DNA from: an uncultured Candidatus Saccharibacteria bacterium
GTDB taxonomy: Bacteria > Patescibacteriota > Dojkabacteria > SC72
DNA length: 58,705 nucleotides
Direction of reading: 5' to 3'
Assembly (NCBI GenBank): GCA_964560525.1
Contig: CAZLLO010000005.1
Location: forward strand, 1 to 58,705
The translations under genes and the position numbers were made by a program. The notes beneath the pieces are model-generated. The model saw only the letters and a program-made list of their open reading frames with translations. It did not search any database and was not told the origin of the DNA. Shown here in pieces: positions 28,969 through 58,705 of the stretch; the stretch's first letter is position 1; the number at the start of each line of letters is the position of its first letter.

Positions 28969-30180
28969 CTATCCAATTGCAGAGGACAGCTGGAACATAG
29001 GCATATACACAGCCATTGCAATAAATCCTATGGCTAATCCCATTATAATAAGGAATACTGGTTCTAATACAGAAGACAAACTAGATGTTGCAACATCTAC
29101 CTCTTCTTTGTAATATTCGGACACTTTAGTTAAGACAGCATCAATCTCTCCTGTTTCTTCTCCAACTGCAATCATGCTACTTACCAAAAGAGGAAAGTAC
29201 TCACTTCGTGCAATTGGCAATGCTAAAGCACCTCCTTTTTCAACTTCTGATTTAGCATCTAATACAACATCTTTAAACACACTATTACTCAAAGATGAGG
29301 CGGTAAGTTCTAATGCTTTGATAATTGATAGACCACTTCCAAGCAATAAAGCTAAGATTCTTGTAAATTGAGAAAGTTGCATCTTGGTTATTATCCCACC
29401 AACCACAGGGATTTTCAGAACTAATTTATCAAAGGTTCTTTTTCCCTTATGAGAGCCAAGGTAGTACTTTCCACCAATAACAAGAACAGCTATGACTACC
29501 AACATTGCCCACCAATAATTGATAAAGAAATCACTGATATTCATAAGTAATTTCGTAGCAAATGGTAACTCAGCATTAAAGTCTGCGTATATACTTGCCA
29601 TAGAAGGGACAAGTACAAACATCATCAAAATAACAACAGCAACAATGACCAATAGAATAATTGCAGGATAAATCATTGCAGATTTAAGCTTGCTACTCAA
29701 GCTGTTCTTTTCTTCCAATTCGGTAGCTAACCTTTCCAATATAATTTCCAACTTACCACTTTCTTCACCAGCTTCTATTAAGTTTAAAGTAATTTCATCA
29801 AAAATCTCTTCTTGTGCTCTGAATGAATTTGATAAAGATTTTCCAGATTGAACAGAGGTTAAAACATCCTTAAGTGTTCTTCTGAAAAATGGGTTTTCTA
29901 CCTGTTGTGTCATAATTTCGAGCGCACGTGTCAAAGGCAATCCAGCACCAACCATGGTAGACATCTGTCTCATAAAAATAACCTTTTCTTTCATAGGGAT
30001 ACCACCAATATTGACTTCAGAGAGCCTTTCAAAATCTATACCCATAGATTCTTTTATGGTTACTACGATCAAACCTCTATCGTGAAGAATATCCGTAACA
30101 GCATTACCATCTCTAGCTTCCACAACACCGTTTACAACTTTTCCTTTTACATCACGTGCTGAATATTTGTATTTTTTCAT
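28969..30180 (-). CDS. pilC: Type IV pilus platform protein (GspF family)
   Basis: GEESGKL, KSAMIYP, VGEETGEID, LEPVFLI, VYMPMF. Confidence 0.95.
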   Translation of the reverse strand: MKKYKYSARDVKGKVVNGVVEARDGNAVTDILHDRGLIVVTIKESMGIDFERLSEVNIGGIPMKEKVIFMRQMSTMVGAGLPLTRALEIMTQQVENPFFRRTLKDVLTSVQSGKSLSNSFRAQEEIFDEITLNLIEAGEESGKLEIILERLATELEEKNSLSSKLKSAMIYPAIILLVIVAVVILMMFVLVPSMASIYADFNAELPFATKLLMNISDFFINYWWAMLVVIAVLVIGGKYYLGSHKGKRTFDKLVLKIPVVGGIITKMQLSQFTRILALLLGSGLSIIKALELTASSLSNSVFKDVVLDAKSEVEKGGALALPIARSEYFPLLVSSMIAVGEETGEIDAVLTKVSEYYKEEVDVATSSLSSVLEPVFLIIMGLAIGFIAMAVYMPMFQLSSAIG

Positions 30181-30185
30181 AATTT

Positions 30186-31700: not shown

Positions 31701-31720
31701 AATATAGTTATATCAAAAAT

Positions 31721-40043: not shown

Positions 40044-40615
40044 GGTTTAGGATATTTATACCTATCTTTACCTTTATCCCTTAGGGTGTTTAATGTCCCA
40101 GAGATTTCTTCTAATTTATGTAATCTCTCACTATGTAGACCAATATCTGAATCTAGGTTCTGAATATATTGTATATTACTTTTCATATGTCTTTCCATTG
40201 TAACAACCTTTAAGTTTATGTCTTTTAACATATCTGTATGCGTAGCTACTACTTCCACTAGATTTTCAATCCTTCTATCTATATCACCAAGAACATTAGA
40301 TATCTGTATAAACTTATTATCTTGTTCTGATAATTTTAATAAAATCTTTTTCAACTGTTTGTCGTGTTCGGAAACTTTGTTTTCTAATGTTTCAATTTTC
40401 CTCTCGACAGACTCAAGTCGTTCTTCAATTAAATCAAGTCTATCCTCAACTGAATCAAGTCTATTCTCAACTGAATCAAGTCTATTCTCAACTGAATCCA
40501 GTCTATTCTCAATTGAATCCAGTCTATCCTCAATCAAATCAAGTCTCTTTTCAAGGCTATCAAACTTTGGTTGTAATAACTCTTCAATTTTCTTTAAATC
40601 CTCTTGTGTAAGCAT
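40040..40615 (-). CDS. Coiled-coil protein with tandem heptads
   Basis: RLDSVEN-type repeats; TACAAT 6 nt upstream of the ATG. Confidence 0.75.
   Translation of the reverse strand: MLTQEDLKKIEELLQPKFDSLEKRLDLIEDRLDSIENRLDSVENRLDSVENRLDSVEDRLDLIEERLESVERKIETLENKVSEHDKQLKKILLKLSEQDNKFIQISNVLGDIDRRIENLVEVVATHTDMLKDINLKVVTMERHMKSNIQYIQNLDSDIGLHSERLHKLEEISGTLNTLRDKGKDRYKYPKP
40413..40559. repeat. 21-bp tandem repeat, 7 imperfect copies, in frame
   Basis: Unit TCAAGTCTATTCTCAACTGAA; the copies at 40455 and 40476 are identical. Confidence 0.92.
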
Positions 40616-42778: not shown

Positions 42779-44383
42779 ATGATTAACTGCCTCAAAAAAA
42801 ATCTTTCTGTCATCATTGTTGGACTAATTGCATTAGCATTAATATATCTCAATATTAAGCTAAACTATATAATAATGGGGGCAGACAATGCTTCTCCATA
42901 TTTCAATCCAGTTGCGATATTAAACAGAATCAAGGATACTTCTTCTGTAATATACGGAGGTATTGTATTTCAAGTACCATTTCTACAAACACTAAAAATC
43001 GCAGGTTTAACACCAGCTGTAATCTCTAATGTCTATGTATTTACTAATTTCTTCTTTGGGGTAATAGGGATAGCTCTGATAATAAAACAACAAACAAAGA
43101 ATATTTGGGCAACACTAATAGGTTCAATCATATTTATTACTAGCTTATTCACATTCTTCATATTCTCACAACCCAATTTCCTATTCGTAGCTGCATATGG
43201 ATCAATACCATTACTCATATACATTCTCTCCAGAAGTAAACTTCGTTGGTATCATTGGGTATTTTTAGTAATATTTTCAATATCTTTCCTGACAACAACT
43301 CTTAACATTGTAGCTTTTGGATTCTATTTAATCCAAGTCCTAGTTATATCTCAGATTTTGTTAAAGGATAAATCCAAATGGAAAAGAAATCTTCTCTGGG
43401 GTGGAATACTAATAGCTATCTGGATGTTAACAATACAGTGTGTTATGTATTTCAATTCTGACACGAAACTTTTCATTGTAAATATCTTTAACTATACAAA
43501 AGAGTTACTAACCAACGCATACATGCCAACTGTTACATCAGGCATTATAGCTTCTGAAAAAACAAACTCCTTGGTTAGGACAATGCAATTTGCACTGGGG
43601 TGGATGGAATTACATAATTCAAGAAATCAAACATTATTCCAATTCTATACTACATACAGGGAAAATATCTTGTTCACACTGATTGGAATACTACCTTTCA
43701 TGCTTTCTTTCTTGGTCATTATATTTAAAAGAAGTAAGAAATACATATTACTTCTCTTAATACTTTTTCTCTTTATCTTCGTATGTAGTGGTATTGGCAT
43801 GGGATTGATTGAGAAGATTCCATATCTCAGCAGTATCCTACGTTGGGCTTCAAGCAAATTATGGCCTATGTATGTAATACCAATCACAGTATTGCCCGCG
43901 ATAGTTGTAAAACAGATAATCAAAGGGAAAGGTCTACTACTTAAGAACCTTCTGTTGACACCCTTAGTATTACTATTCATCCTCTATGGATATCCTGTTT
44001 TAAATGGTCACCTAATTTCAGCAAAGATGTGGGTTGATATTCCTAAAGAGTATTTTGATATTCCTTCGGATTCAAAGATTTTAATACTTCCACATGCTCA
44101 AAGTCTTTACATGAGAGATTTTGATTGGGGATACTACGGTTCAGATTTTCTTTCATATACAAGTAATTCACAAATTGTTGATGGAGCAAATATGTATGAA
44201 TACTCCACAGAGTATGAGAATATTTTTGAAACAGGAGTAATTCCAGATGACATTGATTATGTTATCTACAATACCTCTGCAGAATCTTTCTTAGACGAAG
44301 ATTTAAAGAACAAAAGTATTCAATTAACTCAAGATCTTCCCGTTATTAATTCAAACCAGTACTTTACTATATATGAGAAATAA
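42779..44383 (+). CDS. Multi-TM protein, putative GT-C-type glycosyltransferase
   Basis: About 12 hydrophobic segments, acidic loop after TM1 (GADNASPYF) and a soluble C-terminal domain. Confidence 0.55.
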   Translation: MINCLKKNLSVIIVGLIALALIYLNIKLNYIIMGADNASPYFNPVAILNRIKDTSSVIYGGIVFQVPFLQTLKIAGLTPAVISNVYVFTNFFFGVIGIALIIKQQTKNIWATLIGSIIFITSLFTFFIFSQPNFLFVAAYGSIPLLIYILSRSKLRWYHWVFLVIFSISFLTTTLNIVAFGFYLIQVLVISQILLKDKSKWKRNLLWGGILIAIWMLTIQCVMYFNSDTKLFIVNIFNYTKELLTNAYMPTVTSGIIASEKTNSLVRTMQFALGWMELHNSRNQTLFQFYTTYRENILFTLIGILPFMLSFLVIIFKRSKKYILLLLILFLFIFVCSGIGMGLIEKIPYLSSILRWASSKLWPMYVIPITVLPAIVVKQIIKGKGLLLKNLLLTPLVLLFILYGYPVLNGHLISAKMWVDIPKEYFDIPSDSKILILPHAQSLYMRDFDWGYYGSDFLSYTSNSQIVDGANMYEYSTEYENIFETGVIPDDIDYVIYNTSAESFLDEDLKNKSIQLTQDLPVINSNQYFTIYEK

Positions 44384-45488
44384 CATTGTAATAATGGCAT
44401 GGAGAGATGTCTGGCACCCTGAAAAGGGCGGTGCGGATCTCTACATAAATAGAGTAGCCCTATATTTAAAAAATCGTGGCTATCATGTCACATATCTTAC
44501 TGCTTTGTACAAAGGCGCTAAAAAAAGAGAGACTAGGAAAGATATAGAGTTTATAAGGATGGGCAATGCTATAACGATATATCTTCTACTTCCACTGTAT
44601 TTCATATTCAAACTCAGGAAGACAACAGGTTTACTCATTGAAAATTTCAATGCTGTTCCTTTTAACATCCCTTTGTATTTCAAAAAGAATATTACAGTTG
44701 TTCATCACTTACAGGATGAGGAGTGGAAGCTTAAATATGGTAAGTTTCTCGGGAAGATCTTCCATAATGTCTTTACTTTTCTCTTTGTAAAAAATTACAA
44801 ACGTCAACCATATATCGTAACTGTCTCTCCATCATCTAGACAGGAATTAATCGACCATGGTTTTAAGCCTCAAAATGTTAGCATTGTATACAACGGTATT
44901 AATACCAAAATTAATAGAAATGCTCAAAAAGAGAACTCTATTATCAAAATCCTCTCACACGGAAGAATGCCTCGAACAAAGCATATAGATAAAGCGATTA
45001 AGCTAATAAACTACACAGTAAAAAAACTTGGGATAAAGAATATTATCCTAAAAATCTCTGGAAGAGGAGCAGACGAGGAGAGACTAAAAGGGTTAGTAAA
45101 GAAATATCAATTAGAAGAATATGTGAAATTCCTTGGCTTTACAACAGATAATGAAAGGGCAAGGCTATTTGAGGAAGCACATTTACATGTACAGTTCTCC
45201 AAAAAAGAGGGGTGGGGTACTACGGTCTTAGAAGCATCCTCTAAGGGAACACCAACAATTTGCTATCCTGTCCAAGGACTCCGAGATAGTGTAAAAGAAA
45301 ATACTGGGTACCTTGTAAAAGGTTCGCTAAGGAAAACTTGGACTCAAGCTTTACACGAAATTATGACAAATGATCCTAACTATGTATCAAAGCAGATGAA
45401 TGGAATTACCTGGGCTTCTCAGTTCAGATGGAGAAATCAGCTAGACAATTTCTACCAAATAGTACTAAAAGCATTAGTACAAGATTAA
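44373..45488 (+). CDS. Glycosyltransferase family 4 (GT-B)
   Basis: WRDVWHPEKGGAD, GRMPRTKHID, KEGWGTTVLEA. Confidence 0.9.
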   Translation: MRNNIVIMAWRDVWHPEKGGADLYINRVALYLKNRGYHVTYLTALYKGAKKRETRKDIEFIRMGNAITIYLLLPLYFIFKLRKTTGLLIENFNAVPFNIPLYFKKNITVVHHLQDEEWKLKYGKFLGKIFHNVFTFLFVKNYKRQPYIVTVSPSSRQELIDHGFKPQNVSIVYNGINTKINRNAQKENSIIKILSHGRMPRTKHIDKAIKLINYTVKKLGIKNIILKISGRGADEERLKGLVKKYQLEEYVKFLGFTTDNERARLFEEAHLHVQFSKKEGWGTTVLEASSKGTPTICYPVQGLRDSVKENTGYLVKGSLRKTWTQALHEIMTNDPNYVSKQMNGITWASQFRWRNQLDNFYQIVLKALVQD

Positions 45489-48341
45489 AAGCATTCCAAC
45501 AACTAAGACTCCAAATACAAACAACATAAGGGAGAATAGATTATCCATACCTACGAACCAAATATCTGTGTTTTGATTGTATATAGATACATTCTGGAAT
45601 AGGTTGGTGCTCATAATATTTCCACCGTTAGTAGAAAGTAAATACTCTGAGTTGTAATTGCGAATATACAAGCTAGAACTGTCCAAGCAGTTTGTGTTTA
45701 AAGTAAGCTTTGGGAAGATTCCCGCCTGATACCCAGAAGTCGAAATATTACAACTATCTTTGTAGATAGAAAGCTTATTAGAAACAACCATTCCCGTTTC
45801 AGGAATATCAATTGTGCTAATTGTTGCAACTTTGTTCTTTAATGTAGCCAACACACTTTGCGGTAAAACGACTATCCCTCCAAAGCTAACAAATCCTCCT
45901 TCATTTTTCATACTCAACTTTATATTCTCATGATACTTAAGATCTACGGCACCTAAATCAACCCACTTGTATTGCTCAAAATCACTCTTCGTATCTATTT
46001 CAAAACTTTTTCCATTCACCCCAATGCTTAGCTTCCCTCCAATGTGATTGTACAGAACATATGCAAAGACCTCACAGCTACCACTACACACTGATTCTTG
46101 TTCAAAGGATGCTTGAGAGACTACATATGGATTATTATTCTCTACAGACCTCTTAAACGGCTTGTCCGAATATACAACCTTGTCTACAGTATTAAAATTC
46201 CAAGCATGAATATCATAATTTCTAAATACATTGTGTAACTCACCATTCACCTTGTCATAGTATGATGCTCGTCCCCAATCTAACCCTAAACCATAGTCAA
46301 AGACATAATCATATAGATAATATCCATAATGCACTTGATCTTCCTTAGATAGGAAATCCATGAAGTAGTTATCATCACTATCATACTTCAGAAATACATT
46401 TGTATTTTGACCAGCTTCACAATCCTTGACATTCTCTTCAAAGCCACAGAATCGAACATCGTAGTTTTCAAGGATATTGGAATCTAAATGTTCGAGGATA
46501 TTAAATGATTCATATGTATATATGGAATTTAGCTTATTCCCAACAACGCTACTAAAACTCTTGTTTTTAAACACAACATAGAAATCATTATCTAAAACAC
46601 TTTCGAAATCTGCACTTTGCTCTAGATACAGATATACGGGATATATGATATCTGAGCGAACATAGTCCTCAGAGAGATTAATGGGAACTGCATCCTTTCT
46701 AATTATTACATACTTAACACCAGCATCTGCCAATGTATTTGAGATCTCAGATAAAGAATCTCTTTCCTCAAAAAGATAATCTGTCATCATACCTTGCGAG
46801 GTTTTTCCATTTGGTATAACACTACTAATATCAACCGAGGACTTAGGAGAATTGTATACAATCAGTTTGTATTCTTCGGAATCTGCAATACTAAATTTGT
46901 CCGCCATCCAAGAAATAGAGTAAGCATCTACCTGAGGGTAGTAGAATACACTGTAATAGTCATTGTCTTTCTCTAATAAGGAGTAAACTTCTTTGATGCT
47001 CCCATCTATCTCTATTGGCTTGAGATATCCAAAGAATTTAACATTAACAGCAAAAAGATAGACTGCAAAAGGTATAAATATAGCTGGAAATACAACTATC
47101 TTAAGAATATGATTAAGCTTCCCTTGCAAAAGAATACTTTCAAAGAGAGAATATGCACCTAAAGCAAAAAGTATAAACATCCAGAAATACCAAAGAAATG
47201 ACAACCTATTTATCTCCCTAAATACCCATCCTAGTGGTGAATATACTAAGAAATTAAATAGGGCATCATGGAATGGGAATATATCTAAAACAAGCAATGG
47301 AGCAGTTAAGAGCAATACAATAATTGGAATAGCATATTGTATTTTAATATGTCTTACCAGTCCATATATTGCTACTACATAAAAAACAATACATCCCAAA
47401 ATCTGAATAATATATATTGTAGAACCAGAGTCTAAGACACCAAGATTTGATTGATTAACAAACCAATCTCCTTGCCCCAAAAGGAAATTCGTCAAAGTTG
47501 TACCCTGAGAAAGCATTGATATCATTGTATTGTTTACCACGTATCCTGGGGTAGGAGAGCCACTTAAGAAATACGGTACTAACCAGTATAGATTGGTAAC
47601 AATAACCAATATTCCTGCAATCAAGATATTAAGAAAAGGATAGAGTATTTGTTTGAGACTTTTTAAGCTAAATACAAATTTGAATATGAAAAATACTGCA
47701 AATGTAAACAAATCAAATACTAAAATATTGGGTGTTGTTAAACCAAAAAACATTGAAAGTACAAAGAGTACAATAATCTTGAAGTCTATTTTCTCTGTAT
47801 TGAGTAATTTCAAAAAGAGATATATCTGAATAGGGTAGAAAATGCTCATGTAAAAGAGATGGAGCTGTGATACACGGTATGTATAGAAAGGGATAAAGCA
47901 ATACAGAAGTGCAATTATCAATGCCCATATATATATTCCTCCTTGTTTCTCTACGTTATTTTTACAAAAAAGTTTTACTAATTTTGGTGCTAAGAAATAT
48001 ATTGTTGTATATGCACCGGTAAAGAGTAGGGTTATGGCTATTTTGATTACAACCTCGTTGCCCATTCCAAGTGCTTTGAATGGTAAGAATATGAGATATA
48101 TTAAGGAGACTAATGGTAGTCTATCTCTTAACCCAACATTACTAGCATCCCATGATGTAAAGAGTTTGAAGTATTGTCCAAATGGATCTCTAAAATCAAA
48201 TGCTCCACTTAGATCCCAATAATAGATATAGCCTGGATGTCTAAGGATTGTGAAATAGAGGAGGGCTGATATTAATACTAATCCTATTAGGTAGAAGAAT
48301 AGCTTTTTACGATTTCTAAAATAGAAAGATGAGATAGGCAT
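45474..48341 (-). CDS. Large multi-TM protein, putative GT-C-type glycosyltransferase with an extracellular domain
   Basis: N-terminal TM bundle with YYWDLSGAFD loop, FREINR, GVKYVIIRKD; large soluble region and C-terminal TM. Confidence 0.55.
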   Translation of the reverse strand: MPISSFYFRNRKKLFFYLIGLVLISALLYFTILRHPGYIYYWDLSGAFDFRDPFGQYFKLFTSWDASNVGLRDRLPLVSLIYLIFLPFKALGMGNEVVIKIAITLLFTGAYTTIYFLAPKLVKLFCKNNVEKQGGIYIWALIIALLYCFIPFYTYRVSQLHLFYMSIFYPIQIYLFLKLLNTEKIDFKIIVLFVLSMFFGLTTPNILVFDLFTFAVFFIFKFVFSLKSLKQILYPFLNILIAGILVIVTNLYWLVPYFLSGSPTPGYVVNNTMISMLSQGTTLTNFLLGQGDWFVNQSNLGVLDSGSTIYIIQILGCIVFYVVAIYGLVRHIKIQYAIPIIVLLLTAPLLVLDIFPFHDALFNFLVYSPLGWVFREINRLSFLWYFWMFILFALGAYSLFESILLQGKLNHILKIVVFPAIFIPFAVYLFAVNVKFFGYLKPIEIDGSIKEVYSLLEKDNDYYSVFYYPQVDAYSISWMADKFSIADSEEYKLIVYNSPKSSVDISSVIPNGKTSQGMMTDYLFEERDSLSEISNTLADAGVKYVIIRKDAVPINLSEDYVRSDIIYPVYLYLEQSADFESVLDNDFYVVFKNKSFSSVVGNKLNSIYTYESFNILEHLDSNILENYDVRFCGFEENVKDCEAGQNTNVFLKYDSDDNYFMDFLSKEDQVHYGYYLYDYVFDYGLGLDWGRASYYDKVNGELHNVFRNYDIHAWNFNTVDKVVYSDKPFKRSVENNNPYVVSQASFEQESVCSGSCEVFAYVLYNHIGGKLSIGVNGKSFEIDTKSDFEQYKWVDLGAVDLKYHENIKLSMKNEGGFVSFGGIVVLPQSVLATLKNKVATISTIDIPETGMVVSNKLSIYKDSCNISTSGYQAGIFPKLTLNTNCLDSSSLYIRNYNSEYLLSTNGGNIMSTNLFQNVSIYNQNTDIWFVGMDNLFSLMLFVFGVLVVGMLLILY

Positions 48342-48578: not shown

Positions 48579-49154
48579 CTATTGACGAGTTGGCATCTCT
48601 GTCAACTTAAAACCATAGACATGGACTCTGCTGATATAAGGGCTTGCGCTCTTAATTTCTGCATAGGTCTTACGACCAAATTCGCCACCTTCAGGACCGC
48701 TTACGAACCACGTGTCGTTGTAACCAGCATCAGAAAAGATTTTGAGTAAATCCTCATAGTCTTTCTGACTAATAGCATCGGTTACATCTCCGGGGAAGAC
48801 CCATGAGCAACGACTCTCATCCACCTGCCATTCAATGCGTGTGGGAGAATCTGAACCCCATTGGTCAGCCCAATCCTGAATCTTTTGCCATGTTGCATCG
48901 TCGATTTTATCGAAACAGGCCCGAGGGTCTAGCTTCGCATTATCAACAATCAACTGGTTGCTGTGGCTCACTGCTGTGATATGCCAATCATTATTGGAAG
49001 GATCTGAAGGTCCAGAACCCCCTTTGACATACTCAACAGCCTTGGCCCAAGAAAGCCCAGTGAGTTTCTTCAACTCGGCTTTTGTGTCACAAGCGGACAA
49101 CACAACCATTGAAAAGATAGTTACCAATACAACAACCAACATATTTTTTTTCAT
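48579..49154 (-). CDS. Hypothetical lipoprotein
   Basis: MKK, hydrophobic stretch and LSA|C lipobox; SD GAGGAG; elevated GC. Confidence 0.8.
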   Translation of the reverse strand: MKKNMLVVVLVTIFSMVVLSACDTKAELKKLTGLSWAKAVEYVKGGSGPSDPSNNDWHITAVSHSNQLIVDNAKLDPRACFDKIDDATWQKIQDWADQWGSDSPTRIEWQVDESRCSWVFPGDVTDAISQKDYEDLLKIFSDAGYNDTWFVSGPEGGEFGRKTYAEIKSASPYISRVHVYGFKLTEMPTRQ

Positions 49155-49547: not shown

Positions 49548-50150
49548 TTATGGTGCGGGGGTTGCGGATGGCGCAGGTGTATTCATGGGAAGACTACCTG
49601 GTTCATCGATGATCAATGGAGGTTGTGCGGGGGTTAATGTTGAAGAAGTGCTCACGCCGTAGTTGAAATACGCAAACCGAGAGAAAAATTCTTCTCGAGA
49701 AAGCTGACTATCAACGGCATAGCGGTCTTCACCCCAAACAAGCTTTCCATCAACTTCTTTCGCAATCGGATACGGCCACCAGATCACTTTTGTGTCCCAG
49801 AAGAAGTAGTAGTCAATACCATTGACACATTTCTTGTCGACACGGAAAAGTTCGTAATCTGTCGCGACGACCCAGTTTTCATCACATGGTAAGGAGTTCA
49901 GCCAAAGCTGTTCCTGTCCGCTGACGGTATTTGGGTCAGGCGTCGATATTGCCGCTGGAGTTGCTGAAGTGACGGTCGCAGAAGACGTAGGGGTAGGAAC
50001 ATAAGCTCCACCACGTGTTACGACATTGCTTTCCTTTTGAGAAGGCTGACCATCATTTCTCCAATCTGCCGACGCTGTGCTTGTTGCACACGCGCTTAGG
50101 AGCATAGCTCCTATTGCCAATACAATTACTACTACCAAAACCTTTTTCAT
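49548..50150 (-). CDS. Hypothetical lipoprotein with Pro/Thr-rich linkers
   Basis: MKK, hydrophobic stretch and LSA|C lipobox; PTPTSSAT and TPAPSATPAP; SD AGGAG; elevated GC. Confidence 0.8.
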   Translation of the reverse strand: MKKVLVVVIVLAIGAMLLSACATSTASADWRNDGQPSQKESNVVTRGGAYVPTPTSSATVTSATPAAISTPDPNTVSGQEQLWLNSLPCDENWVVATDYELFRVDKKCVNGIDYYFFWDTKVIWWPYPIAKEVDGKLVWGEDRYAVDSQLSREEFFSRFAYFNYGVSTSSTLTPAQPPLIIDEPGSLPMNTPAPSATPAP

Positions 50151-50527: not shown

Positions 50528-51181
50528 CTAGATGTCAATACTATGGGTCGCCTGGTTACCAATTATATGAAAAAGTTCCTTATGAGGAAATTGTGGCAAA
50601 CAATCATTCTCACTAAAAAGATATCTGAAATATTTCTCTGCTCTCCAGTTCCCAAAAGCTTCGTAATATACTTCAACTTCATTCCTATTTAAAATCTGTA
50701 GATATTTTTTCAAAAACTGTCCAAACTTAATCCTGTTCCATTGTTCTTCAGTTCTCGTTTCAGTAAACAATGGTTTCCACAATGCAGTATCCATTCTTTC
50801 ATCAAAATCCCTCAAAGAGTCTAAGTAACAAAACATTATATTAATAGCTGGCTTTTGAAAACCTTTTACATCCTTTATAATAACTGCACGATTAAGTTCT
50901 TCGTTTTTAAATAGGTAACTATTATCCCATGAGTCCAACATAATAGTAGTAGGGGAGCAGAAAAATTCTGGAACTTTTCTCTTAGGGATAATTTCTACCT
51001 CAAAATTATTATCATATAATAATTGCAGAACCTCATCATTAAAGATACCTGGATCAAGTTGATTTCTGCGCTCACCAATAGGAGGGAAAGCAGGTTTTGT
51101 TTCAATTGTTTCAGACATTAATTCTTGGGCTATCATAGGCCTATAATTATACACCTTGACAACGGAATAAGAAACTATCAA
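50528..51181 (-). CDS. Hypothetical protein; start uncertain
   Basis: 217-aa ORF with no recognised motif. Confidence 0.6.
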   Translation of the reverse strand: MIVSYSVVKVYNYRPMIAQELMSETIETKPAFPPIGERRNQLDPGIFNDEVLQLLYDNNFEVEIIPKRKVPEFFCSPTTIMLDSWDNSYLFKNEELNRAVIIKDVKGFQKPAINIMFCYLDSLRDFDERMDTALWKPLFTETRTEEQWNRIKFGQFLKKYLQILNRNEVEVYYEAFGNWRAEKYFRYLFSENDCLPQFPHKELFHIIGNQATHSIDI

Positions 51182-51220: not shown

Positions 51221-52357
51221 ATGGACACTCAGCCAGGATCTTCAAGTGAATTTAATGATGGAAGTACCAATCCTACATCTGCTCAAGAAATACAAACTTC
51301 TACATTAGTAGCCGCAAGAGATGGAGGTGATATGTTTACCAGTGATCCAGAGGTAACAGCCCCTATAGATCCGAGAGCAAGTGGAAAAGTCGAACTTCCA
51401 GAAGGTACTCCAGGTTTTATGGCTGGAATCAATACTGGTTTTAGAGAAGTAGCTGGTGTTACAACATTGGTAGAAAAACCAGATCAACCAACTTTCAGAA
51501 TGGATAAGGGATACGGAGCAGCAGTTGTAGGACAACAAGTTGAAGCGTCCGTTAGAGCATATGGTGCAGATGTTGCGCAACAGAGAATAGAAAAGATTGA
51601 CAATACTGTAGAAAAGATAACAAATGCAGTAGAAGCAGTTGGAACCTTCTTTAAGAAGGTTGAGAATCTTAAACTGAAAGCAAGAAATGCAGATGCAATA
51701 GTTACAGGTTGGGCCGCGAAGGTTGGAGCAAAGGTCCCAGCAGCCGCAGGAGAAGCTATAGGTGTTACTGCTGCTCTTGGTGGTGCTGTGGCAATCGCAC
51801 CAGTTGTAGTCCCAGCGATTGTTGGTTATGGTGCATGTGTACTTGGAAAGAAAGCTTTAATAGAGACATACAAAGCCGTAGGTAATGCAGCAAAATGGGT
51901 TGGAGAAAACGCTATAGTCGTTGGTAAAGCTGTTGGACATGTAATTGCAGAAACAGGGAAGGGAATTGCTAAAGGTGCAAAAGCAACAGCTAGAGAGCTA
52001 GAATATGGATATATCCCCAATGCCGTAGCAGTAAATGTAGTGAACGCTGCAGATAACGTATCTCATACAGTTCTTCTAGGTATTGCTAGTGGGCTTGAAA
52101 GAAAAGCAAGCCAAAACCAAAAAGAAGGTAAGCCTGGAGAAACCGCTTTAGCAGGTTTCTTTAGAGAAACATTTGTCAAAGAAGGTCTTCTTGCAGCAAA
52201 GAAAGATGCCATGAAAGCTAAATCAGAGTCTGTAGAAAGAAACAAAGATAGAAGAATGGCATTACAAAGGATTGGTAAATATGTATTAACTGGGAAATGG
52301 GTAGGGCCACAACAAGCTACAGCATTCTCACCAGCAACGGCTTATGATCTTCAGTAA
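51221..52357 (+). CDS. Hypothetical Ala/Gly-rich protein with an internal hydrophobic segment
   Basis: No signal peptide; AIGVTAALGGAVAIAPVVVPAIVGYGACVLG followed by amphipathic KAVG repeats. Confidence 0.8.
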   Translation: MDTQPGSSSEFNDGSTNPTSAQEIQTSTLVAARDGGDMFTSDPEVTAPIDPRASGKVELPEGTPGFMAGINTGFREVAGVTTLVEKPDQPTFRMDKGYGAAVVGQQVEASVRAYGADVAQQRIEKIDNTVEKITNAVEAVGTFFKKVENLKLKARNADAIVTGWAAKVGAKVPAAAGEAIGVTAALGGAVAIAPVVVPAIVGYGACVLGKKALIETYKAVGNAAKWVGENAIVVGKAVGHVIAETGKGIAKGAKATARELEYGYIPNAVAVNVVNAADNVSHTVLLGIASGLERKASQNQKEGKPGETALAGFFRETFVKEGLLAAKKDAMKAKSESVERNKDRRMALQRIGKYVLTGKWVGPQQATAFSPATAYDLQ

Positions 52358-52398
52358 TAGAATCTAATAACGATATCTTTAATTTAGTATAAATAAAA

Positions 52399-52800
52399 AT
52401 GAAAAAATCAGAATTATATCAAGAGTTAAGTGGGATTGTCTTAACAGACGTCACCAGGTTAGAGATAGACAATATTGTCGGAATGATTCCAGACAGTGAG
52501 GAAGTCCCAATAGAAAAGGTTCAGGCAGTCATGGAGATTATTAGCATTGAAGTAGCTGCAGAAGATACTAATATTCAGAATTTAGATAATGCAATAGCCC
52601 AAATAGACAAAGGAATTGCAGATATTGATACACTAGAGAAAACAGCAATTGCTGAAATGGAAGCACAGGGTATTCAAATAGACGAAAAAGGGAATCAGTT
52701 GGATGAAGAAATCCAAAACTTGCAACAGGCAGTAGATGAATCCACAAATGATTCTCAACCAGTAACACAACCTGTAGCTCAAGCTCCAGCAGTAGCGTAA
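52399..52800 (+). CDS. Acidic coiled-coil hypothetical protein
   Basis: Heptad pattern IQNLDNAIAQIDKGIADIDTLE. Confidence 0.75.
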   Translation: MKKSELYQELSGIVLTDVTRLEIDNIVGMIPDSEEVPIEKVQAVMEIISIEVAAEDTNIQNLDNAIAQIDKGIADIDTLEKTAIAEMEAQGIQIDEKGNQLDEEIQNLQQAVDESTNDSQPVTQPVAQAPAVA

Positions 52801-52937
52801 AATATTCAAAAATGTACTAATTTTTACCCTTTCTTTTTTGTGTTAGTTCAACCTTTTTAAAAGCACTTCACGATATTTGACAACTATATCCAATAAACTA
52901 TATATTTTAATATCATTTAATTAAACAATAGCCCCAA

Positions 52938-55900
52938 ATGGAAAGAGAAATTTTTGAATCCTCCGCATTAAAGACCGTAAGTGAGACACCAACATCGACA
53001 GATAGGTTGGAAGGAAGTTATCCAGTAGAGAAACTTTCTGCTGTACCAGATGCAGAATGGAAAGATAGGGTAACAGGCATACCAACAGAGGCTGTTGAAA
53101 CCGCAAAAGCACTATGTGATCCAAATGATACAAGCTTAAAGGACCTAATCACGGCGTTAGATCATAGAGAAAAAGATTTTAGAAACCATCCTACAGGCCC
53201 AATAGATATGGGACAAGTAAACAGTTATCTAGATACGGTATATGGCAAAGATACAACAGGAAATTCTTTAAAATCAGTAGTTGATACCCCCGCGCTTTCC
53301 ACAGCAGATTTTGAAAAAATGGTATCGGGAAGTACAGACCCTGCAATTAAACAAACAATCCTTAAAGATACAATCAAATTAGCATTAGCAACAGGTTCTC
53401 CAAGAGAAGTAAATTCTTTAATGAAGAGCTTAGAAACTGGCAAACTTTCACTGATAACCGCAGGAGGAAACCTTACAACTTCAGGGAAATTACTTTTAGA
53501 ATCCGCATTAGCCTTAAAAAGCAATGTATACACCACTAGCACAGGAATAAATGTTTCTCCTGTTTTAAAAACAGAGGTTAAAAACTTCATTGAAGCTCCA
53601 AAAGATCCTGCGAAGAAAACTGCTTTTGGAACATTCATGAGTGCGAAGCATTTAAATGCAACACCCGCTACGATTACAGCAACCGCAGGGGCAATTAAAA
53701 CAACAGAATGGGAAACAAAGGTTAAGAAAGGTAAAGATGATGCAGCAAAGACCCTTTTCAAGGGAATCTTTAATACAACATCAGGAGCATTAAAATCCAT
53801 GGCTCCAAGTATGAGAGGTATTGTTGCCAGAGAGCTTTCTTCGCTAAACAAAACACCTTTTGTGATGCTAGGCAAACAACTAAATGAAATATCAGAGATA
53901 GCAAAGATAGCAAGAGGAACAAAAGCTCTAAACGAAAAAGTAAAGGATATCGATTTGAGACTAAATAACGATGTTACAAAGAAAAACCTTGGAGAGCTAC
54001 AAGAAACCGTTGATGCAAATGTCTCGTTAGAGAATCCAAAGCACAAAGAAGTACTAGCAAGAAGATCAGTAGAAATTCTTAACCAAATTGCAAAAGACAA
54101 AGGCTTTGACTTAACCGCATTGAGAACTCCTTGGAACAAGACATGGGAAGAAGAATTTAGAAATGCAACAACAGCTATCAATACAGATGGGAACATAATG
54201 CCAGTTGCAGATTTACTAGGAAGAGTAGCAATCTTCAGTGAGAAGAAAGAATTAAGAGATCAAGCAGAAAAAGAACTAAAAACATTGTTAACTTCACTCT
54301 TACTCCATCAAGGTGCAAACAAAGAAGATGTACTCAAGAAAATTCAAGATACAGCACCAGGAAGCTACGGAACCGAAATGAAGAAACTCTTCACAGATAC
54401 CAATGCAGGAAACCTAGGTGCAAATCCAGAGAACACCTCAGTACAATTAGCAGCTTTAGTCTTTAGTAGATTAGAGAATATTGAATATTACAGGAAGATA
54501 AATAATAAGGCAGCAAATACAAGAACACCAGAAGAAGCAGCACAATTAGAATTCTTGATTAGCAGACTACATAATAGTGATGGAAGTGTATTTGATGTAA
54601 CCAAGACAGTAAATCCAGCACAATTCAACGAAAGACAACAAGAACAAATAGGAGATCAGTTCCAGAGAGAATTACAAGCAAATGCCATAGCAGAAGCATT
54701 AGGATTAAATGCAAACGATCCTAAGGTTGCAGAAATAATGGCTATGACAAAGCCAGGCGAGGTCATGGCAACAGAAAATAACAAATTCAATAGAATAAAT
54801 AATTCAGAAAATCTTAGAAAAGTTGGTATTGCAGGAATTGCAGCAGCAGGTGCAGTTATGGCATTTACACCAGGTTTAGCACCAATTGGAGCAGCAATAT
54901 TAATAGGAACAGGAATCGCGAAAATTGGTTTAGTCGTTAAAAACGTCATTGAAAGCTCAAAGAGAATTGGTTTTAAACAAACAATGAAGAACATGTGGAC
55001 TGGGTTTAAAGACAGTATTACATATCTCTTCGACAAAGAGCATACTGTTAAGGAAAAGCTTGTCTATGGAGCAGCATTCTTAGCTAGTGCAGGAAGAATG
55101 TTCTTGCCAGGAGTGGGAAGTGCCATATATTCAGTAGTTGAAGCAGGTGCAGCGTGGGGATCTGAGAAGCATTTAAGTGATCAGAGAAAACATGTTGCAG
55201 CAGAAATAGCAGGTATTAGATCTGTTATGGAAAACACAAATTATGCAACTACAAGCGGTAGAACTGTTAATGCAGTAAATGTATGGAACGAATACAAAAC
55301 AAGAAGAGCATCCCTCTTGGAAGAAAAGAGAGCAGAAGCTATTAGAACAGGACAGCCTACAAGACCTCTCGAGAGTTACTCAGACAAAGAAGTCCTTGCA
55401 GTTATAACAGAAAATAAATACAAAGCAGATCCAGATGCAAATAAAGAGAAAGATTTCTTGGAAGTTATGAACGTTGTAGTTACAAAGCAAGAGGCAGTAA
55501 AAGAAATGAATGAGAAATACAACAAGGCAGCTGGAATGTGGGGTGCGGTATTTGCAGGTTCAATGGTTGGTGCACTAGTAGGTGGAGCAGCAAGAATAAC
55601 AGTTGGAGCAATAAATGCACATCCAACACAAAACCCAACTGAAAATCCTGAAAACCCACAGAATCCAACAAATCCAGAAAATCCAACTAACCCAAATCCT
55701 ACCAATCCAAGTGGACCAACAGAACCAACTCAACCAGTTAACGAAGGTGGTGTACTTCTGAGGAATGGACGTGTTTACTTACCAGGTGATGCTATGGATG
55801 GTCAACCAGGATTCCCAGCTTCACAGACTACACTTGAGGGAGGTATTAACAACTACAACAACTATGACTATGGAGCATACGATATGGCCGCATGGAAATT

Positions 55901-56123
55901 AGATCAAGACTTAGTAGCAAATGGCATTACTAGACCTGAGTTAGACAAATTAGGCGATTTAGGGATCCATAGATTAGCTTACAACTATACTCAAGAGATA
56001 CTTGGAGGTAATCCAACTCCAGATCTAAGTGCTGAACTACAACAACTTGGTACCCCAGAAGCACTGTCATTGGCAGAAAAAGTTGCACCTGGAAATCTCA
56101 ATTTAGGTCAACCAGGACTATAA
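52938..56123 (+). CDS. Large hypothetical protein with three Gly/Ala-rich hydrophobic segments and an Asn-Pro linker
   Basis: 1061-aa ORF with no signal peptide. Confidence 0.85.
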   Translation: MEREIFESSALKTVSETPTSTDRLEGSYPVEKLSAVPDAEWKDRVTGIPTEAVETAKALCDPNDTSLKDLITALDHREKDFRNHPTGPIDMGQVNSYLDTVYGKDTTGNSLKSVVDTPALSTADFEKMVSGSTDPAIKQTILKDTIKLALATGSPREVNSLMKSLETGKLSLITAGGNLTTSGKLLLESALALKSNVYTTSTGINVSPVLKTEVKNFIEAPKDPAKKTAFGTFMSAKHLNATPATITATAGAIKTTEWETKVKKGKDDAAKTLFKGIFNTTSGALKSMAPSMRGIVARELSSLNKTPFVMLGKQLNEISEIAKIARGTKALNEKVKDIDLRLNNDVTKKNLGELQETVDANVSLENPKHKEVLARRSVEILNQIAKDKGFDLTALRTPWNKTWEEEFRNATTAINTDGNIMPVADLLGRVAIFSEKKELRDQAEKELKTLLTSLLLHQGANKEDVLKKIQDTAPGSYGTEMKKLFTDTNAGNLGANPENTSVQLAALVFSRLENIEYYRKINNKAANTRTPEEAAQLEFLISRLHNSDGSVFDVTKTVNPAQFNERQQEQIGDQFQRELQANAIAEALGLNANDPKVAEIMAMTKPGEVMATENNKFNRINNSENLRKVGIAGIAAAGAVMAFTPGLAPIGAAILIGTGIAKIGLVVKNVIESSKRIGFKQTMKNMWTGFKDSITYLFDKEHTVKEKLVYGAAFLASAGRMFLPGVGSAIYSVVEAGAAWGSEKHLSDQRKHVAAEIAGIRSVMENTNYATTSGRTVNAVNVWNEYKTRRASLLEEKRAEAIRTGQPTRPLESYSDKEVLAVITENKYKADPDANKEKDFLEVMNVVVTKQEAVKEMNEKYNKAAGMWGAVFAGSMVGALVGGAARITVGAINAHPTQNPTENPENPQNPTNPENPTNPNPTNPSGPTEPTQPVNEGGVLLRNGRVYLPGDAMDGQPGFPASQTTLEGGINNYNNYDYGAYDMAAWKLDQDLVANGITRPELDKLGDLGIHRLAYNYTQEILGGNPTPDLSAELQQLGTPEALSLAEKVAPGNLNLGQPGL
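55623..55736 (+). repeat. Low-complexity N-P-x repeat linker
   Basis: PTQNPTENPENPQNPTNPENPTNPNPTNPSGPTEPTQP. Confidence 0.85.
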
Positions 56124-56156
56124 TTAAATAATATAAATTAAGTAACAAACAAAACC

Positions 56157-56804
56157 ATGGCTGCCCAAGATACAATGGCCCAAATTAGTGAAGAGACATC
56201 GAAAGCTCTTAGTAAAGCAAGTTTCTCTACACAAACAGAAGATGCAATAAAAAATCTTTTGACAGTACTAGAGCAATCAGGTCTTTTTAGTGCAGAAGCT
56301 AAAGCAGAGTTGGAAAAGAGACTCTTCGAAGATTTCTACTTAGCATTAATGGCTGAACTATTCTCTAGCTTTACTGAAGAAAACAAAGAAAGTCTTGTAA
56401 ACGCTTCACAAACTGGTCTTACAGAAATGCAAATTCTAGAATTACAATTAGAACTATACAGAAAAAACAAAGGTTCTGATATTGAGATATTTGCACAAAA
56501 ACTCTACGATGAAATGGCAGAGAGAGTACTAAAAGATTTAGAGATTTTAAGACAATCCGTTTCTGATGTTGAGAAATTAACAGATGATCAGGTAAGGATA
56601 CTTGAAGGTATGATTGAAGAAAAAGTCCCAGAAGAAGAGCTTCTGCAAAAGATGCAAACATTTCAGGGTGTAAGTGCTATACCACAAGTTCCTAATGTGC
56701 CAACAGATGATGGTAAGTATACCGAGATTATATCCTTGGTTAAACAAGGAAAACTAGAAGAAGCTAGAGAAGAGTTAAACAAGACAATATACGGAGTTAA
56801 ATAG
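56157..56804 (+). CDS. Acidic helical hypothetical protein
   Basis: 215-aa E/L-rich ORF 33 nt after the 1061-aa gene. Confidence 0.75.
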   Translation: MAAQDTMAQISEETSKALSKASFSTQTEDAIKNLLTVLEQSGLFSAEAKAELEKRLFEDFYLALMAELFSSFTEENKESLVNASQTGLTEMQILELQLELYRKNKGSDIEIFAQKLYDEMAERVLKDLEILRQSVSDVEKLTDDQVRILEGMIEEKVPEEELLQKMQTFQGVSAIPQVPNVPTDDGKYTEIISLVKQGKLEEAREELNKTIYGVK

Positions 56805-56907: not shown

Positions 56908-58083
56908 ATGAGCGAATATAAAGATACCCACACAATGGTAGATGGTCTCGGTTTCCAAACTACTGACTTCAATTTGCCAACCAACCAGACTGATACAAAA
57001 AGAATTGCACCTGAAATTGAAGAACTAAAATTGGCATATCCAGATGCGTTTATTGATTCAAAAGATTCTCAAAACGATGGTAATATTCTGATTCTCAGAG
57101 ATATATATAACTTCCTTTCTGCACCGCAAATAAACGGCATCTCTTCTGAAGACATTCAAGTTATTAACAACAAATTAGATGAGGCCACGGATTATGACAA
57201 CACTCGAAACTTCTCTCTTGTGCAAGGTTTGAAAGAAGCTAGAAATTCATTTGTGCCTGGAGCTATAAGATTCGTGGGAAGTAATTTGTGCCATACAAAT
57301 GGATTAAGTTCCGACGTTACAATATTAGATTGGAAAAAGAAATTAGGAGCAAATGACCAGAAGAAAATAATACTATTACTCGAAGTAACTCAAATGGTAG
57401 GAGAATATATCAATGAGAAACGACCCGCTCACAAAGTTGCAAAAATACAACCTGAAAATATAACTCCCTTAACAATAATTCCTATCCCAAACAAGGCAGA
57501 ACTACAAACAAATACTCTTGAAATTAATTCCCCATCCCAAAATCAACCTCCATTTTTCAATCCAATTGAAGTAAACAATGCACCTCCTGTTCAAGAGATA
57601 ACAATACAAACACCAGATCAACTATCCACTGATCAAATACAAAGAAACCTTGAATATATAGAGAAGTTAGAAGCAAGGTATACACAAGCATTTGACAAAG
57701 ATGGCGAAATCCTCAAACTTCGTGCCGTTCAACCTTTCCTAAAAGAAAAACAACCTCATGGGATTATCCAAGAAGTATTTGATACTATACAAGCAAGAAT
57801 GCGATCTGTAACAAACCTCTTTCCATATGACAGAAATAACTACGTACCAGCAGATAACGAATCTTTCTTGAGAGACTGCTTAACGCCAGCAATATACGAA
57901 GCTACTGAAAGTGGATATATTACATTCTCAAAAATGGGATTACAATACCCTGCAAAAGATGGACACTCTATAACTATACCTATCGAGAAGATTGGCCCAC
58001 ATGACATGGTACGACTATCAGAATTACTCGAATTAACTCAGCTCATACATGTACAAGAAGAGAGACTTGGAATAAGGAGATAA
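56908..58083 (+). CDS. Hypothetical protein
   Basis: 391-aa ORF with an internal P/Q/N-rich linker. Confidence 0.75.
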   Translation: MSEYKDTHTMVDGLGFQTTDFNLPTNQTDTKRIAPEIEELKLAYPDAFIDSKDSQNDGNILILRDIYNFLSAPQINGISSEDIQVINNKLDEATDYDNTRNFSLVQGLKEARNSFVPGAIRFVGSNLCHTNGLSSDVTILDWKKKLGANDQKKIILLLEVTQMVGEYINEKRPAHKVAKIQPENITPLTIIPIPNKAELQTNTLEINSPSQNQPPFFNPIEVNNAPPVQEITIQTPDQLSTDQIQRNLEYIEKLEARYTQAFDKDGEILKLRAVQPFLKEKQPHGIIQEVFDTIQARMRSVTNLFPYDRNNYVPADNESFLRDCLTPAIYEATESGYITFSKMGLQYPAKDGHSITIPIEKIGPHDMVRLSELLELTQLIHVQEERLGIRR

Positions 58084-58091: not shown

Positions 58092-58705
58092 TTACTTGAG
58101 TGGATGGTTCTTTCTAACAGTTTCTTCTGCAAATTTCTCGCTTGCATGTACATACTTAGTAGTAGTATTTAAACTCTCATGACCTAATAGAGCTTGCAAC
58201 GCCACAGGACTAGCACCTTGCTCAGCAAGATAAGTAGCAAAACCATGACGTAGACTATGTGCTGAAGTAGGAATCTGTATACCAAGCTTACGTCTATATT
58301 CAGCAATCTTTTCTTGAAAATAGTTTGTAGAAATCCTCATATCTTCTTTACCATACCGACCACCAGAAAAAGGAATGAACAGAGCAGGGGAGTCAAACTT
58401 TTCAAGGAACCCACTCTGCCTGTAACTCTCAACCAAAGAAATATATTTCCTATTCCCTTTATCAAATATCTCCAAATTCAATTCACCCCCAGATGTTTCA
58501 CGCTCAGTATTCACATCAGCCATTAGTTTATCCAAAACTCCTGGTTGTTCCTCCGCATCCTTATTTGTAAACGCATACTTAAGCCTTACACTTAGGTATT
58601 TATTCAACCAATCCAAACTTCTTTGTGTTAAAAACACCGAACGTTCTTTTTTACCCTTACCAATAATATACATCTTACCCTCAACATTAATATTCTCTAG
58701 ATCCA
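58092..58705 (-). CDS. XerC/D-family tyrosine recombinase, C-terminal part; frame open to the right edge
   Basis: IIGKGKKER, HSLRHGFAT, LLGHESLNTTTKY; the reading frame continues DLENINVEGK upstream of the track's Met. Confidence 0.92.
   Translation of the reverse strand, partial: DLENINVEGKMYIIGKGKKERSVFLTQRSLDWLNKYLSVRLKYAFTNKDAEEQPGVLDKLMADVNTERETSGGELNLEIFDKGNRKYISLVESYRQSGFLEKFDSPALFIPFSGGRYGKEDMRISTNYFQEKIAEYRRKLGIQIPTSAHSLRHGFATYLAEQGASPVALQALLGHESLNTTTKYVHASEKFAEETVRKNHPLK

Follow-up and report, generated by a model that had tools for sequence, protein, structure and literature searches.

A two-gene cassette encoding a large protein with Gly/Ala-rich hydrophobic segments and an acidic partner in a fixed chromosomal slot of one Patescibacteria clade

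We report on a two-gene cassette close to the right-hand end of contig CAZLLO010000005.1 (58,705 nucleotides, nt; referred to below as the window, i.e. the whole stretch of DNA that was analysed), where a gene for a protein of 1061 amino acids (aa) is followed by a gene for a 215-aa acidic protein. The pair is the long-form version of a cassette that is specific to one clade of Patescibacteria, and relatives of the large protein are of a long type or of a shorter type (short type). In an earlier note on this DNA the pair was taken for a candidate contact-dependent effector and its downstream partner. The features of the cassette and its right-hand neighbour are listed below, with ratios of nonsynonymous to synonymous substitution (dN/dS) and the AlphaFold2 predicted local distance difference test score (pLDDT) where these apply; ORF denotes open reading frame and L001 the locus of a 78%-identical relative.

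52877..52906 (+): promoter-like site TTGACA-18-TATATT, 11/12 consensus, ~30 nt before the start codon; a weak candidate, called from consensus match only
52938..56123 (+): gene (ORF) for the 1061-aa long-type family protein; dN/dS 0.13 against L001
52938..54797 (+): N-terminal ~620 residues, predicted to be helical, without signal peptide; in long-type members only
54813..54950 (+): first hydrophobic hairpin, aa 626-671; TPGLAP connects its two Gly/Ala-rich helices, and K/R are present on either side
55053..55160 (+): second, weaker hydrophobic segment, aa 706-741; kept in all long-type relatives and only there
55170..55523 (+): charged helical segment between the hydrophobic regions, aa 745-862; dN/dS 0.05, pLDDT 50-70
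55527..55619 (+): last hydrophobic helix, aa 864-894, with four K/R before it and none after; predicted to cross from inside to outside
55623..55742 (+): Asn/Pro-rich linker, aa ~896-935, 33% Pro and 25% Asn; hypervariable
55743..56120 (+): C-terminal domain, ~126 aa here (~115-126 aa in general), with the family signature; confident model, no match to a known fold
56157..56804 (+): gene (ORF) for the 215-aa acidic partner, 33 nt downstream of the large gene; dN/dS 0.08
58092..58705 (-): gene for an XerC/D-type tyrosine recombinase, the convergent right-hand neighbour; 98% protein identity to L001, the contig ending inside the gene

The architecture described earlier (1061 aa, three Gly/Ala-rich segments, an Asn-Pro linker and a terminal domain, here measured at ~126 aa) was reproduced in its coordinates, the Gly/Ala-rich hydrophobic cores being located at aa 628-668 (nt 54819-54941), 706-741 (nt 55053-55160) and 865-891 (nt 55530-55610). 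Stretches of 40 residues that are both hydrophobic and at least 45% Gly+Ala are present in only two of the 55 window genes, the large gene and an upstream 378-aa gene, which speaks against a chance feature. The N-terminus of the large protein (MEREIFESSALKTVSETPTS...) has no hydrophobic h-region and the first strongly hydrophobic stretch starts at residue 626, in keeping with the proposed lack of a signal peptide. The claim of about 620 helical residues has a low-confidence basis, the full-length AlphaFold2 model, which is almost all helix according to DSSP but has a mean pLDDT of only 41. This model, in which the N-terminal part is confident (pLDDT 64-78) only at about residues 370-455, is too poor overall for use. 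The structural check of domains that had been suggested succeeded for the C-terminal domain. Modelled from a 20-sequence alignment this domain reached a pLDDT of 90.2 and a predicted template modelling (pTM) score of 0.83; it has five helices against which a short N-terminal half, extended or beta, is packed, and it had no match to a known fold.

With dN/dS values relative to L001 of 0.13 (large gene) and 0.08 (partner gene), both are real genes under purifying selection. Residues 331-620 constitute the most constrained part of the large protein (dN/dS 0.04), these and residues 746-862 being strongly constrained within the long type (0.04-0.05), while the linker (dN/dS >1) is the sole part that evolves freely and has a different length and composition in every lineage. 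The downstream ORF (56157-56804) was confirmed to be acidic (isoelectric point, pI, 4.48; 42 D+E vs 24 K+R) and to follow after exactly 33 nt, and it contains no hydrophobic segment. No promoter-like or terminator-like site was detected in the 33-nt gap, which together with the promoter-like site upstream of the large gene would be weakly compatible with co-transcription; promoter-like sites are not enriched in the region (19 found vs 26.7 expected).

A word-indexed search of 5.8 billion proteins gave two relatives of the large protein (78% and 47% identity), and a three-sequence profile, run exhaustively with HMMER against 1.84 billion representatives, gave 33 proteins, one of which (P0026) is spurious. 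This leaves ~30 relatives, i.e. six long-type proteins and ~25 shorter proteins in which the C-terminal domain is the only shared sequence; GTDB was scanned for long-type patterns only. As the profile of the exhaustive search was built from only three sequences, there are probably more family members than those found here. The long-type relatives are P0002 (78% identity), P0003 (47%), L129 (52%), L127 (47%), P0004, P0006 and P0008, where the last three are distant relatives over the full length (1160 aa with E 4e-57, 1094 aa and 1077 aa, respectively). The short-type proteins (218-908 aa) align only at positions ~855-1050, which run from the last hydrophobic helix across the linker into the C-terminal domain, and some HMMER matches begin at this helix. 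They are composed of a variable, often low-complexity or coiled-coil N-terminus, a Gly/Ala-rich hairpin of ~40 residues, a basic helical stretch of ~50 residues, one Gly-rich hydrophobic helix, a variable linker rich in Pro/Thr/Gln/Glu and, at the extreme C-terminus, a domain of ~115 residues with the motif NGRV(N/D)LPGSAW(N/D)GN...GG..N.SN(Y/F).GG..EMA...H.LL. For the whole family the signature reads NGRVxLPG(S/D)A(W/M)...GG..N..N(Y/F)..G..(E/D)MA...H.L, the linkers after the last helix are Pro/Thr/Asn/Gln-rich, 20-60 residues long and hypervariable, and the region before the hairpin varies from about 50 to 860 residues. Homology between the long and short types can be demonstrated for the C-terminal domain only, plus the preceding helix in some matches.

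Neither protein of the pair matched Pfam, NCBIfam, PHROGs or PADLOC, and Pfam searches with 26 family representatives revealed no domain fusion and no significant match. Profiles of the whole protein, of its C-terminal domain and membrane module, and of the partner matched PDB entries by chance only (e.g. LgBiT tags and one PPR-like repeat), with a best E of 0.21 for the membrane-module profile against PDB sequences. The family and its C-terminal domain are new, and the modelled fold is undescribed within the libraries searched. Two outcomes named in the earlier note as speaking against its proposal were also looked for: no match to a housekeeping or tape-measure protein was obtained in the libraries, the fold search or the sequence collections, and the pairing of the two genes is conserved. 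A role as a structural component of type IV secretion systems (T4SS), i.e. VirB3/PrgI, VirB6/PrgH, VirB8/PrgL or a VirB2 pilin, was discarded, since Pfam and NCBIfam gave no match.

Among the short-type proteins, P0022, P0025, P0010 and P0023 carry N-terminal tandem repeats of ~45 residues with the motif (D/A)(A/L)RHQEALDSN(A/K)(R/K)ANEGF, for which no library match was found. At L088 (8418-10276, +) the family gene is frameshifted into products of 492 aa and 91 aa, and many other genes on this contig are fragmented; it represents either a pseudogene or a low-quality assembly, and an alternative genetic code was rejected, as it does not repair the split gene, the cause being a frameshift.

The pairing is kept in every long-type lineage found (the window, L001, L007, L089, L091, L127, L129 and L130), with partner homologs directly 3' of the long-type genes in L001 (82% identity), L129 (64%), L007 (57%), L130 (51%), L127 (51%), L089 (E 2e-24) and L091 (E 6e-16). 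Short-type genes are followed by proteins of 134-145 aa that are mutually related; hhalign detects no homology between them and the long-type partners (probability 1.3%). In all lineages, however different in sequence, the partners are acidic (pI 4.1-4.5), 134-314 aa long and devoid of hydrophobic segments (maximum KD19 0.43-1.15), and no similarity to known chaperone families was detected. Which type of partner is present depends on the type of N-terminus in the large protein and not on its C-terminal domain. This places the putative interaction on the predicted cytoplasmic, N-terminal side and suggests that the partner may bind there. A conserved small upstream gene was considered as a third component and rejected, none being kept across lineages. 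Immediately upstream in the window (51221-52800, +) there is another pair, the above-mentioned 378-aa hairpin protein (pI 8.9; Gly/Ala-rich hydrophobic hairpin at aa 174-214, dG +2.3 on the scale used below) followed by a 133-aa coiled-coil protein (pI 4.05). This pair is present only in the window and L001 lineages and absent from L127, and the 378-aa protein was rejected as a family homolog (no detectable homology, E above 0.01).

To place the cassette on the chromosome we used 30 further loci, obtained from look-ups of the relatives and one metagenome scan; with the window and the other relatives' loci these represent 18 lineages at 90% and 12 at 70% identity of the C-terminal domain. The cassette lies in a conserved series of genes. 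This starts with gyrA, VanY, sortase and glycosyltransferases; next, on the opposite strand, comes a ~1190-aa polytopic membrane protein, then the family gene and the acidic gene, and thereafter a convergent tyrosine recombinase, a ~275-aa gene, ruvB, ruvA, ruvC, yebC, a ~820-aa ATPase and a LytR_C protein. The slot is hence flanked by envelope genes (VanY, sortase, glycosyltransferases, the large polytopic protein and LytR_C) as well as by housekeeping genes (xerC/D, ruvBAC and yebC). Family gene, acidic gene and recombinase follow each other in 28/30 metagenome loci, the other two having too little downstream flank; elsewhere L089 lacks the recombinase at this position and the L091 contig ends before it. 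There is one cassette copy per locus and no paralog expansion. The complete long-type locus L127 (1047 aa, 47% identical) carries the full downstream block, so that the slot is common to long and short types. In the window this order is found between gyrB (34.9 kb) and the recombinase at the window end, with additional lineage-specific genes before the pair (955 aa, two lipoproteins, 217 aa, 378 aa and 133 aa) and after it (391 aa). In S. epibionticum, the one Patescibacterium for which fitness data cover the whole genome, the gene arrangement around ruvB is without the cassette slot. Moreover, no phage, plasmid or defence signals were found (PHROGs, PADLOC, IMG/VR, GenBank phages and PLSDB); specifically, tblastn against GenBank phages and PLSDB plasmids was negative for the pair, and IMG/VR scans with two different profiles gave no relative. 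The fixed syntenic position indicates that the cassette is a vertically inherited core-genome feature of one clade, and not an island, a prophage or a plasmid insert.

The adjacent recombinase belongs to this conserved core (the L093 ortholog matches XerD with E 2.5e-52) and is 58-69% identical across most lineages, values of 85-100% being seen only among near-identical contigs of the L093 lineage. Inside this gene the assembly depth rises two- to threefold (from 15.6 to 45 in run X1 and from 36.8 to 64 in run X2) and variant contigs are present; co-occurring relatives that share this conserved sequence explain why this contig and ~15 related contigs break here. No flanking repeats were found at the locus, and no alternative joints or structural variation in four metagenomes. 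The idea of an invertible promoter or shufflon served by the adjacent recombinase was dropped for lack of meaningful inverted repeats and of alternative joints in these metagenomes.

Within the conserved core the slot is a divergence hotspot, though under purifying selection. Relative to L001, protein identity in the window is 98% for the recombinase and 59-83% for the cassette genes. Between long-type L127 and short-type L093/L095 the flanking genes are 44-76% identical (e.g. VirD4-like ATPase 73%, RuvB 70-76%, Xer 60-64% and glycosyltransferase 56%), and the two cassette genes keep almost no similarity that is detectable by BLAST.

The hydrophobic helices were compared using Hessa free energies (dG) summed over 19 residues without position weighting, a crude scale. 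The helices of the first hairpin gave +3.6 and +4.0, the second segment +6.0 and the last helix +3.4, and hydrophobic helices across the family ranged from +1.4 to +6.7, while the best helices of resident proteins encoded in the window (PilC, sortase, the 534-aa and 955-aa proteins, an ABC transporter and two lipoprotein signal peptides) gave -6.8 to +0.2. The low hydrophobicity noted earlier (+3.4 to +6.0 vs -6.8 to +0.2) is thereby substantiated and holds family-wide. The spacing of small residues is not above that of composition-matched shuffles (small-xxx-small, overall p 0.06-0.94; the triple motif (G/A/S)xxx(G/A/S)xxx(G/A/S), p 0.27-0.94; the pair motif at best 0.06, in the last helix). 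A glycine zipper of the Pfam Gly-zipper clan was accordingly rejected, there being no Pfam match and the periodicity being explained by composition. Charge was compared in ~20 family proteins. The hairpin has 3-7 K/R on its N-terminal side and usually 2-5 (range 1-5) on its C-terminal side, and for the last helix the numbers are 2-6 (mostly 3-6) and usually 0-1 (up to 3 in a few), respectively. Under the positive-inside rule such a distribution would place the N-terminus in the cytoplasm, both hairpin ends inside, and the linker and C-terminal domain outside (N-in/C-out), as expected of a resident membrane protein with this topology.

Most of the data agree with two readings. The better one in our opinion, with a probability of about 0.4, is that the large protein is a resident envelope-spanning protein with a cytosolic acidic partner. 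In its favour are the charge pattern and the linker, the conservation of the C-terminal domain, a single-copy location in the core and the lack of an adjacent exporter, and it was ranked first, by a small margin, because it needs no unobserved machinery. Pro-rich hypervariable linkers resemble the wall-spanning stalks of surface proteins in monoderm bacteria, and a C-terminal domain that is conserved family-wide and has a confident fold fits a binding module with a constant ligand. According to this proposal, the large protein would be synthesised without a signal peptide and retained in the membrane of the producing cell, with its N-terminal helical domain kept in the cytoplasm. The Gly/Ala-rich helices would insert as hairpins with both ends inside, and the last helix would cross from inside to outside, so that the Asn/Pro stalk carries the C-terminal domain through the wall, where it would bind a conserved ligand, either a wall or surface polymer of the cell itself or a component of a host surface. 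No helix by itself is apolar enough to insert efficiently, so that the helices would probably insert after translation and pack against each other, possibly as an oligomer. The presumably co-transcribed acidic partner would bind the large protein at its cytoplasmic N-terminal region, either to hold it before insertion (holdase) or to regulate it, and the whole would couple a cytoplasmic scaffold to the cell surface.

A number of observations weigh against the resident proposal, and the low helix hydrophobicity is real evidence of this kind. Every hydrophobic helix in the family, in all lineages, is far less hydrophobic than the resident helices of the window, which is unusual for a protein inserted by Sec/YidC. 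Judged by the Hessa sums, the helices of the large protein are too polar for the efficient co-translational insertion expected of a resident protein; insertion of the family helices would need helper factors or mutual packing. Low hydrophobicity is also a known hallmark of exported membrane effectors (PMC6110835). Furthermore, the likeness of the long-type and short-type membrane regions is architectural only (hhalign probability ≤2%), and the C-termini of the long-type proteins P0006, L127 and P0003 are divergent or different. Finally, the parts predicted to be cytoplasmic (N-terminal region and partner) diverge fastest and the domain predicted to be exposed is the most conserved, the reverse of what is usual for surface proteins.

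Several of these points bear on a second explanation, the main rival, which we regard as possible and only somewhat less likely, that the large protein is an exported membrane-inserting effector or translocon encoded together with its chaperone. The export, contact dependence and host penetration that had been proposed for the large protein would belong here. In this scenario the acidic partner would keep the protein soluble by covering its N-terminal region and/or its hydrophobic helices, and the T4SS of Patescibacteria, a VirD4/TraD-like ATPase or the pilus machinery would export it at the contact site; the Gly/Ala-rich hairpins would then enter the host membrane, the C-terminal domain would serve as an export-recognition or docking module, and the rapidly evolving N-terminus would act on the host. 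Transmembrane effectors of the type III secretion system (T3SS) and T4SS have a hydrophobicity below that of resident membrane proteins, and chaperones in addition shield their segments (PMC6110835). On the crude Hessa scale the helices of the large protein likewise fall below the hydrophobicity needed for inner-membrane targeting, as do all hydrophobic helices of the family below the resident level. The resemblance to such effectors and to translocators with dedicated chaperones (e.g. SseF-SscB; Krampen et al. 2018, PMC6110835) includes the lack of a Sec signal, the few weakly hydrophobic hairpin helices and the small acidic adjacent protein, which has no membrane segment and is kept in all lineages. 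Unlike them, the large protein has a folded domain on a Pro-rich stalk after its last helix and is encoded by a single-copy core gene, not by a member of an effector repertoire; there is no sequence or fold relationship to these effectors, no injectisome and no adjacent T4SS. A variable N-terminus joined to a constant C-terminal module is also the layout of T4SS substrates with C-terminal signals, but the family has no basic or acidic C-terminal tail of the kind known from such signals. Very fast divergence of a cassette inside a conserved core would be expected at a host interface, whereas single-copy, vertical inheritance without paralog expansion speaks against export, as does the more simple fit of the positive-inside pattern, the Pro-rich stalk and the folded domain after the last helix to a resident N-in/C-out protein.

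With respect to an exporter, the earlier note had stated that type IV pili are the only secretion apparatus visible in the window, which is true; relatives carry a VirD4/TraD-like ATPase beyond the point where this contig ends. This is the ~820-aa DUF8128/DUF87/TrwB_AAD_bind protein (L093 17729-20209, -; L127 17920-20367, -; equivalents in ~20 loci), whose VirD4/TraD-like match is weak but above cut-off and which is 72-80% identical across the clade. It is kept in relatives 5-7 kb downstream of the cassette, between yebC and the LytR_C protein and far from any visible virB4, and possibly belongs to the orphan coupling-protein homologs that have been described as abundant in Patescibacteria. 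Its presence agrees with export, but no exporter gene adjoins the cassette, and xer, ruvBAC and yebC lie in between; because the whole 25-kb block is syntenic, the proximity carries little weight. VirD4-like coupling-protein homologs are furthermore abundant in the phylum, usually far from virB4, and non-essential in S. epibionticum (PMC12102498), which also counts against this route. The T4SS of Saccharibacteria is essential and has no recognised coupling protein and no known substrates (PMC10633639; PMC12102498), a gap that an exported large protein would fill. It is doubtful, and less probable than export in general, that the cassette provides the missing substrate of the Patescibacteria contact machinery, i.e. 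a protein held soluble by its partner, recognised by the VirD4-like ATPase/T4SS via the C-terminal domain and forming a conduit or anchor in the host membrane, with an N-terminus that tracks hosts. The episymbiotic lifestyle on which the export scenario leans is deduced from the phylum only.

Another explanation, and an improbable one in our view, is a strongly diverged housekeeping factor for the envelope, division or segregation, i.e. a landmark or scaffold analogous to MapZ, RodZ, ZipA or FtsN that would work with the neighbouring XerC/D, RuvABC, the FtsK/VirD4-like ATPase or the upstream wall enzymes. MapZ, RodZ and RsgI-type anti-sigma factors, which span the envelope of monoderm bacteria, have their N-terminal part in the cytoplasm, are anchored in the membrane and carry a wall-binding domain outside the cell on a flexible Pro/Ser-rich linker. 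The large protein is like them in its predicted N-in/C-out topology, its hypervariable low-complexity linker, its conserved C-terminal domain and its neighbourhood of wall and chromosome-maintenance genes, where it occurs once per locus in a fixed position between the wall genes and xerC/D-ruvBAC-yebC. It differs in having three to five marginal helices in place of one strong anchor and an obligatory acidic partner, and library and PDB profile searches found no sequence or fold similarity to such proteins. The family was detected in one clade only, with S. epibionticum lacking it near ruvB, the variation in N-terminal length would be odd for a core machine, and the family gene is convergent with the xer-ruv block, not co-oriented.

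We consider it very improbable that the pair is a polymorphic pore-forming toxin with an immunity protein, be it colicin-like or of the RTX, LXG/type VII secretion system (T7SS), contact-dependent inhibition (CDI) or type VI secretion system (T6SS) type. Marginally hydrophobic Gly/Ala-rich helices in hairpins and a small gene directly downstream are indeed shared with the glycine-zipper and colicin-like pore toxins of CDI, T6SS and T7SS (LXG), and one family member gave a sub-threshold match to an RTX N-terminal domain (E 0.008; 16 bits vs a cut-off of 26.8). The kinship to colicin and RTX pore domains suggested earlier could nevertheless not be sustained, as the 26 representatives gave no significant toxin, colicin, RTX, LXG, Rhs or CDI (CdiA) match. 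RTX nonapeptide repeats are absent from the large protein, with two chance matches in the family set, and there is no WXG/LXG motif and no zipper enrichment. The polarity is also the reverse of that of such toxins, with a constant C-terminus and an N-terminus variable in sequence and length, and no orphan toxin or immunity arrays were seen. An immunity role for the partner has likewise to be given up, since this soluble, acidic protein has no membrane segment, unlike the immunity proteins to membrane-acting toxins (PMC11630599, PMC12955049). With its defining tests failed (domain, polarity and membrane immunity protein), this explanation is largely refuted.

Prophage or mobile-element cargo, i.e. 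a tape-measure or ejection protein beside an integrase, has a next to negligible probability: tape-measure proteins are also long and helical with Gly/Ala-rich hydrophobic segments, and a tyrosine recombinase gene lies 2 kb downstream where the contig ends, but the phage and plasmid searches given above (PHROGs, IMG/VR with two profiles, GenBank phages and plasmids) were negative, no phage structural genes are nearby, the recombinase is an XerC/D-type conserved core gene followed by ruvBAC, flanking repeats and alternative joints are missing, the contig end is explained by the doubled depth, and the synteny of a fixed core chromosomal slot together with these searches refutes a prophage or island.

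The cassette bears on the question of how Patescibacteria attach to their hosts and live off them; their T4SS is essential in the one system tested and has no known substrate (PMC10633639, PMC12102498). It is a concrete envelope candidate in this context, the cassette combining a domain of no known fold, helix hydrophobicity of the exported type, an obligatory acidic partner and fast divergence in a conserved core. If the effector or conduit alternative is true, it would be a conduit or anchor by which an episymbiont draws on its host, with the divergence of the N-terminus tracking hosts. Even if the large protein is resident, it represents a new protein family and adds a new domain to a phylum whose genes are to a large extent without annotation, and the slot between the wall-gene block and xerC/D-ruvBAC offers a positional marker for diverged members beyond sequence similarity.

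As to the neighbouring genes, the 391-aa gene between partner and recombinase (56908-58083, +) is a variable insert within the slot; only its C-terminal ~150 residues resemble (25%) the 188-aa protein of L001 at this position, and other lineages have no gene there. The ~1190-aa polytopic proteins (L093 5792-9379, -; L089 416-3952, -) are transcribed divergently from the family gene, and a 534-aa polytopic membrane protein of the window (42779-44383, +), which belongs to no library family, is homologous (23% identity, E 1e-17 to 7e-20) to their N-terminal half. The window further encodes a 955-aa polytopic membrane protein (45474-48341, -), two predicted lipoproteins with signal peptides ending LSAC (48579-49154, -; 49548-50150, -) and a 217-aa cytoplasmic protein (50528-51181, -; 83% identical in L001), all without family match.

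The window itself is chromosomal DNA of ~35% G+C with genes for PPDK, ClpB, an ABC transporter, gyrB/gyrA, a VanY-type carboxypeptidase, sortase and a GT4 glycosyltransferase, and the type IV pilus genes PilC/PilT/PilB (28969-33538). Its GyrB is ≤58% identical to that of any GTDB species representative, the best matches being metagenome-assembled genomes (MAGs) labelled Candidatus Saccharibacteria, Gracilibacteria or other phyla of the Candidate Phyla Radiation (CPR), and the gene order pilB-x-gyrB-gyrA is common to the window and MAGs labelled Saccharibacteria and Gottesmanbacteria. The source organism is thus a Patescibacterium without close sequenced representative. DNA of the window is present in bioreactor metagenomes, and a search for RNA runs gave none. 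Directly after gyrA (40040-40615, -) lies a gene for a 191-aa coiled-coil protein with weak matches, only, to coiled coils of the SMC/Rad50 type.

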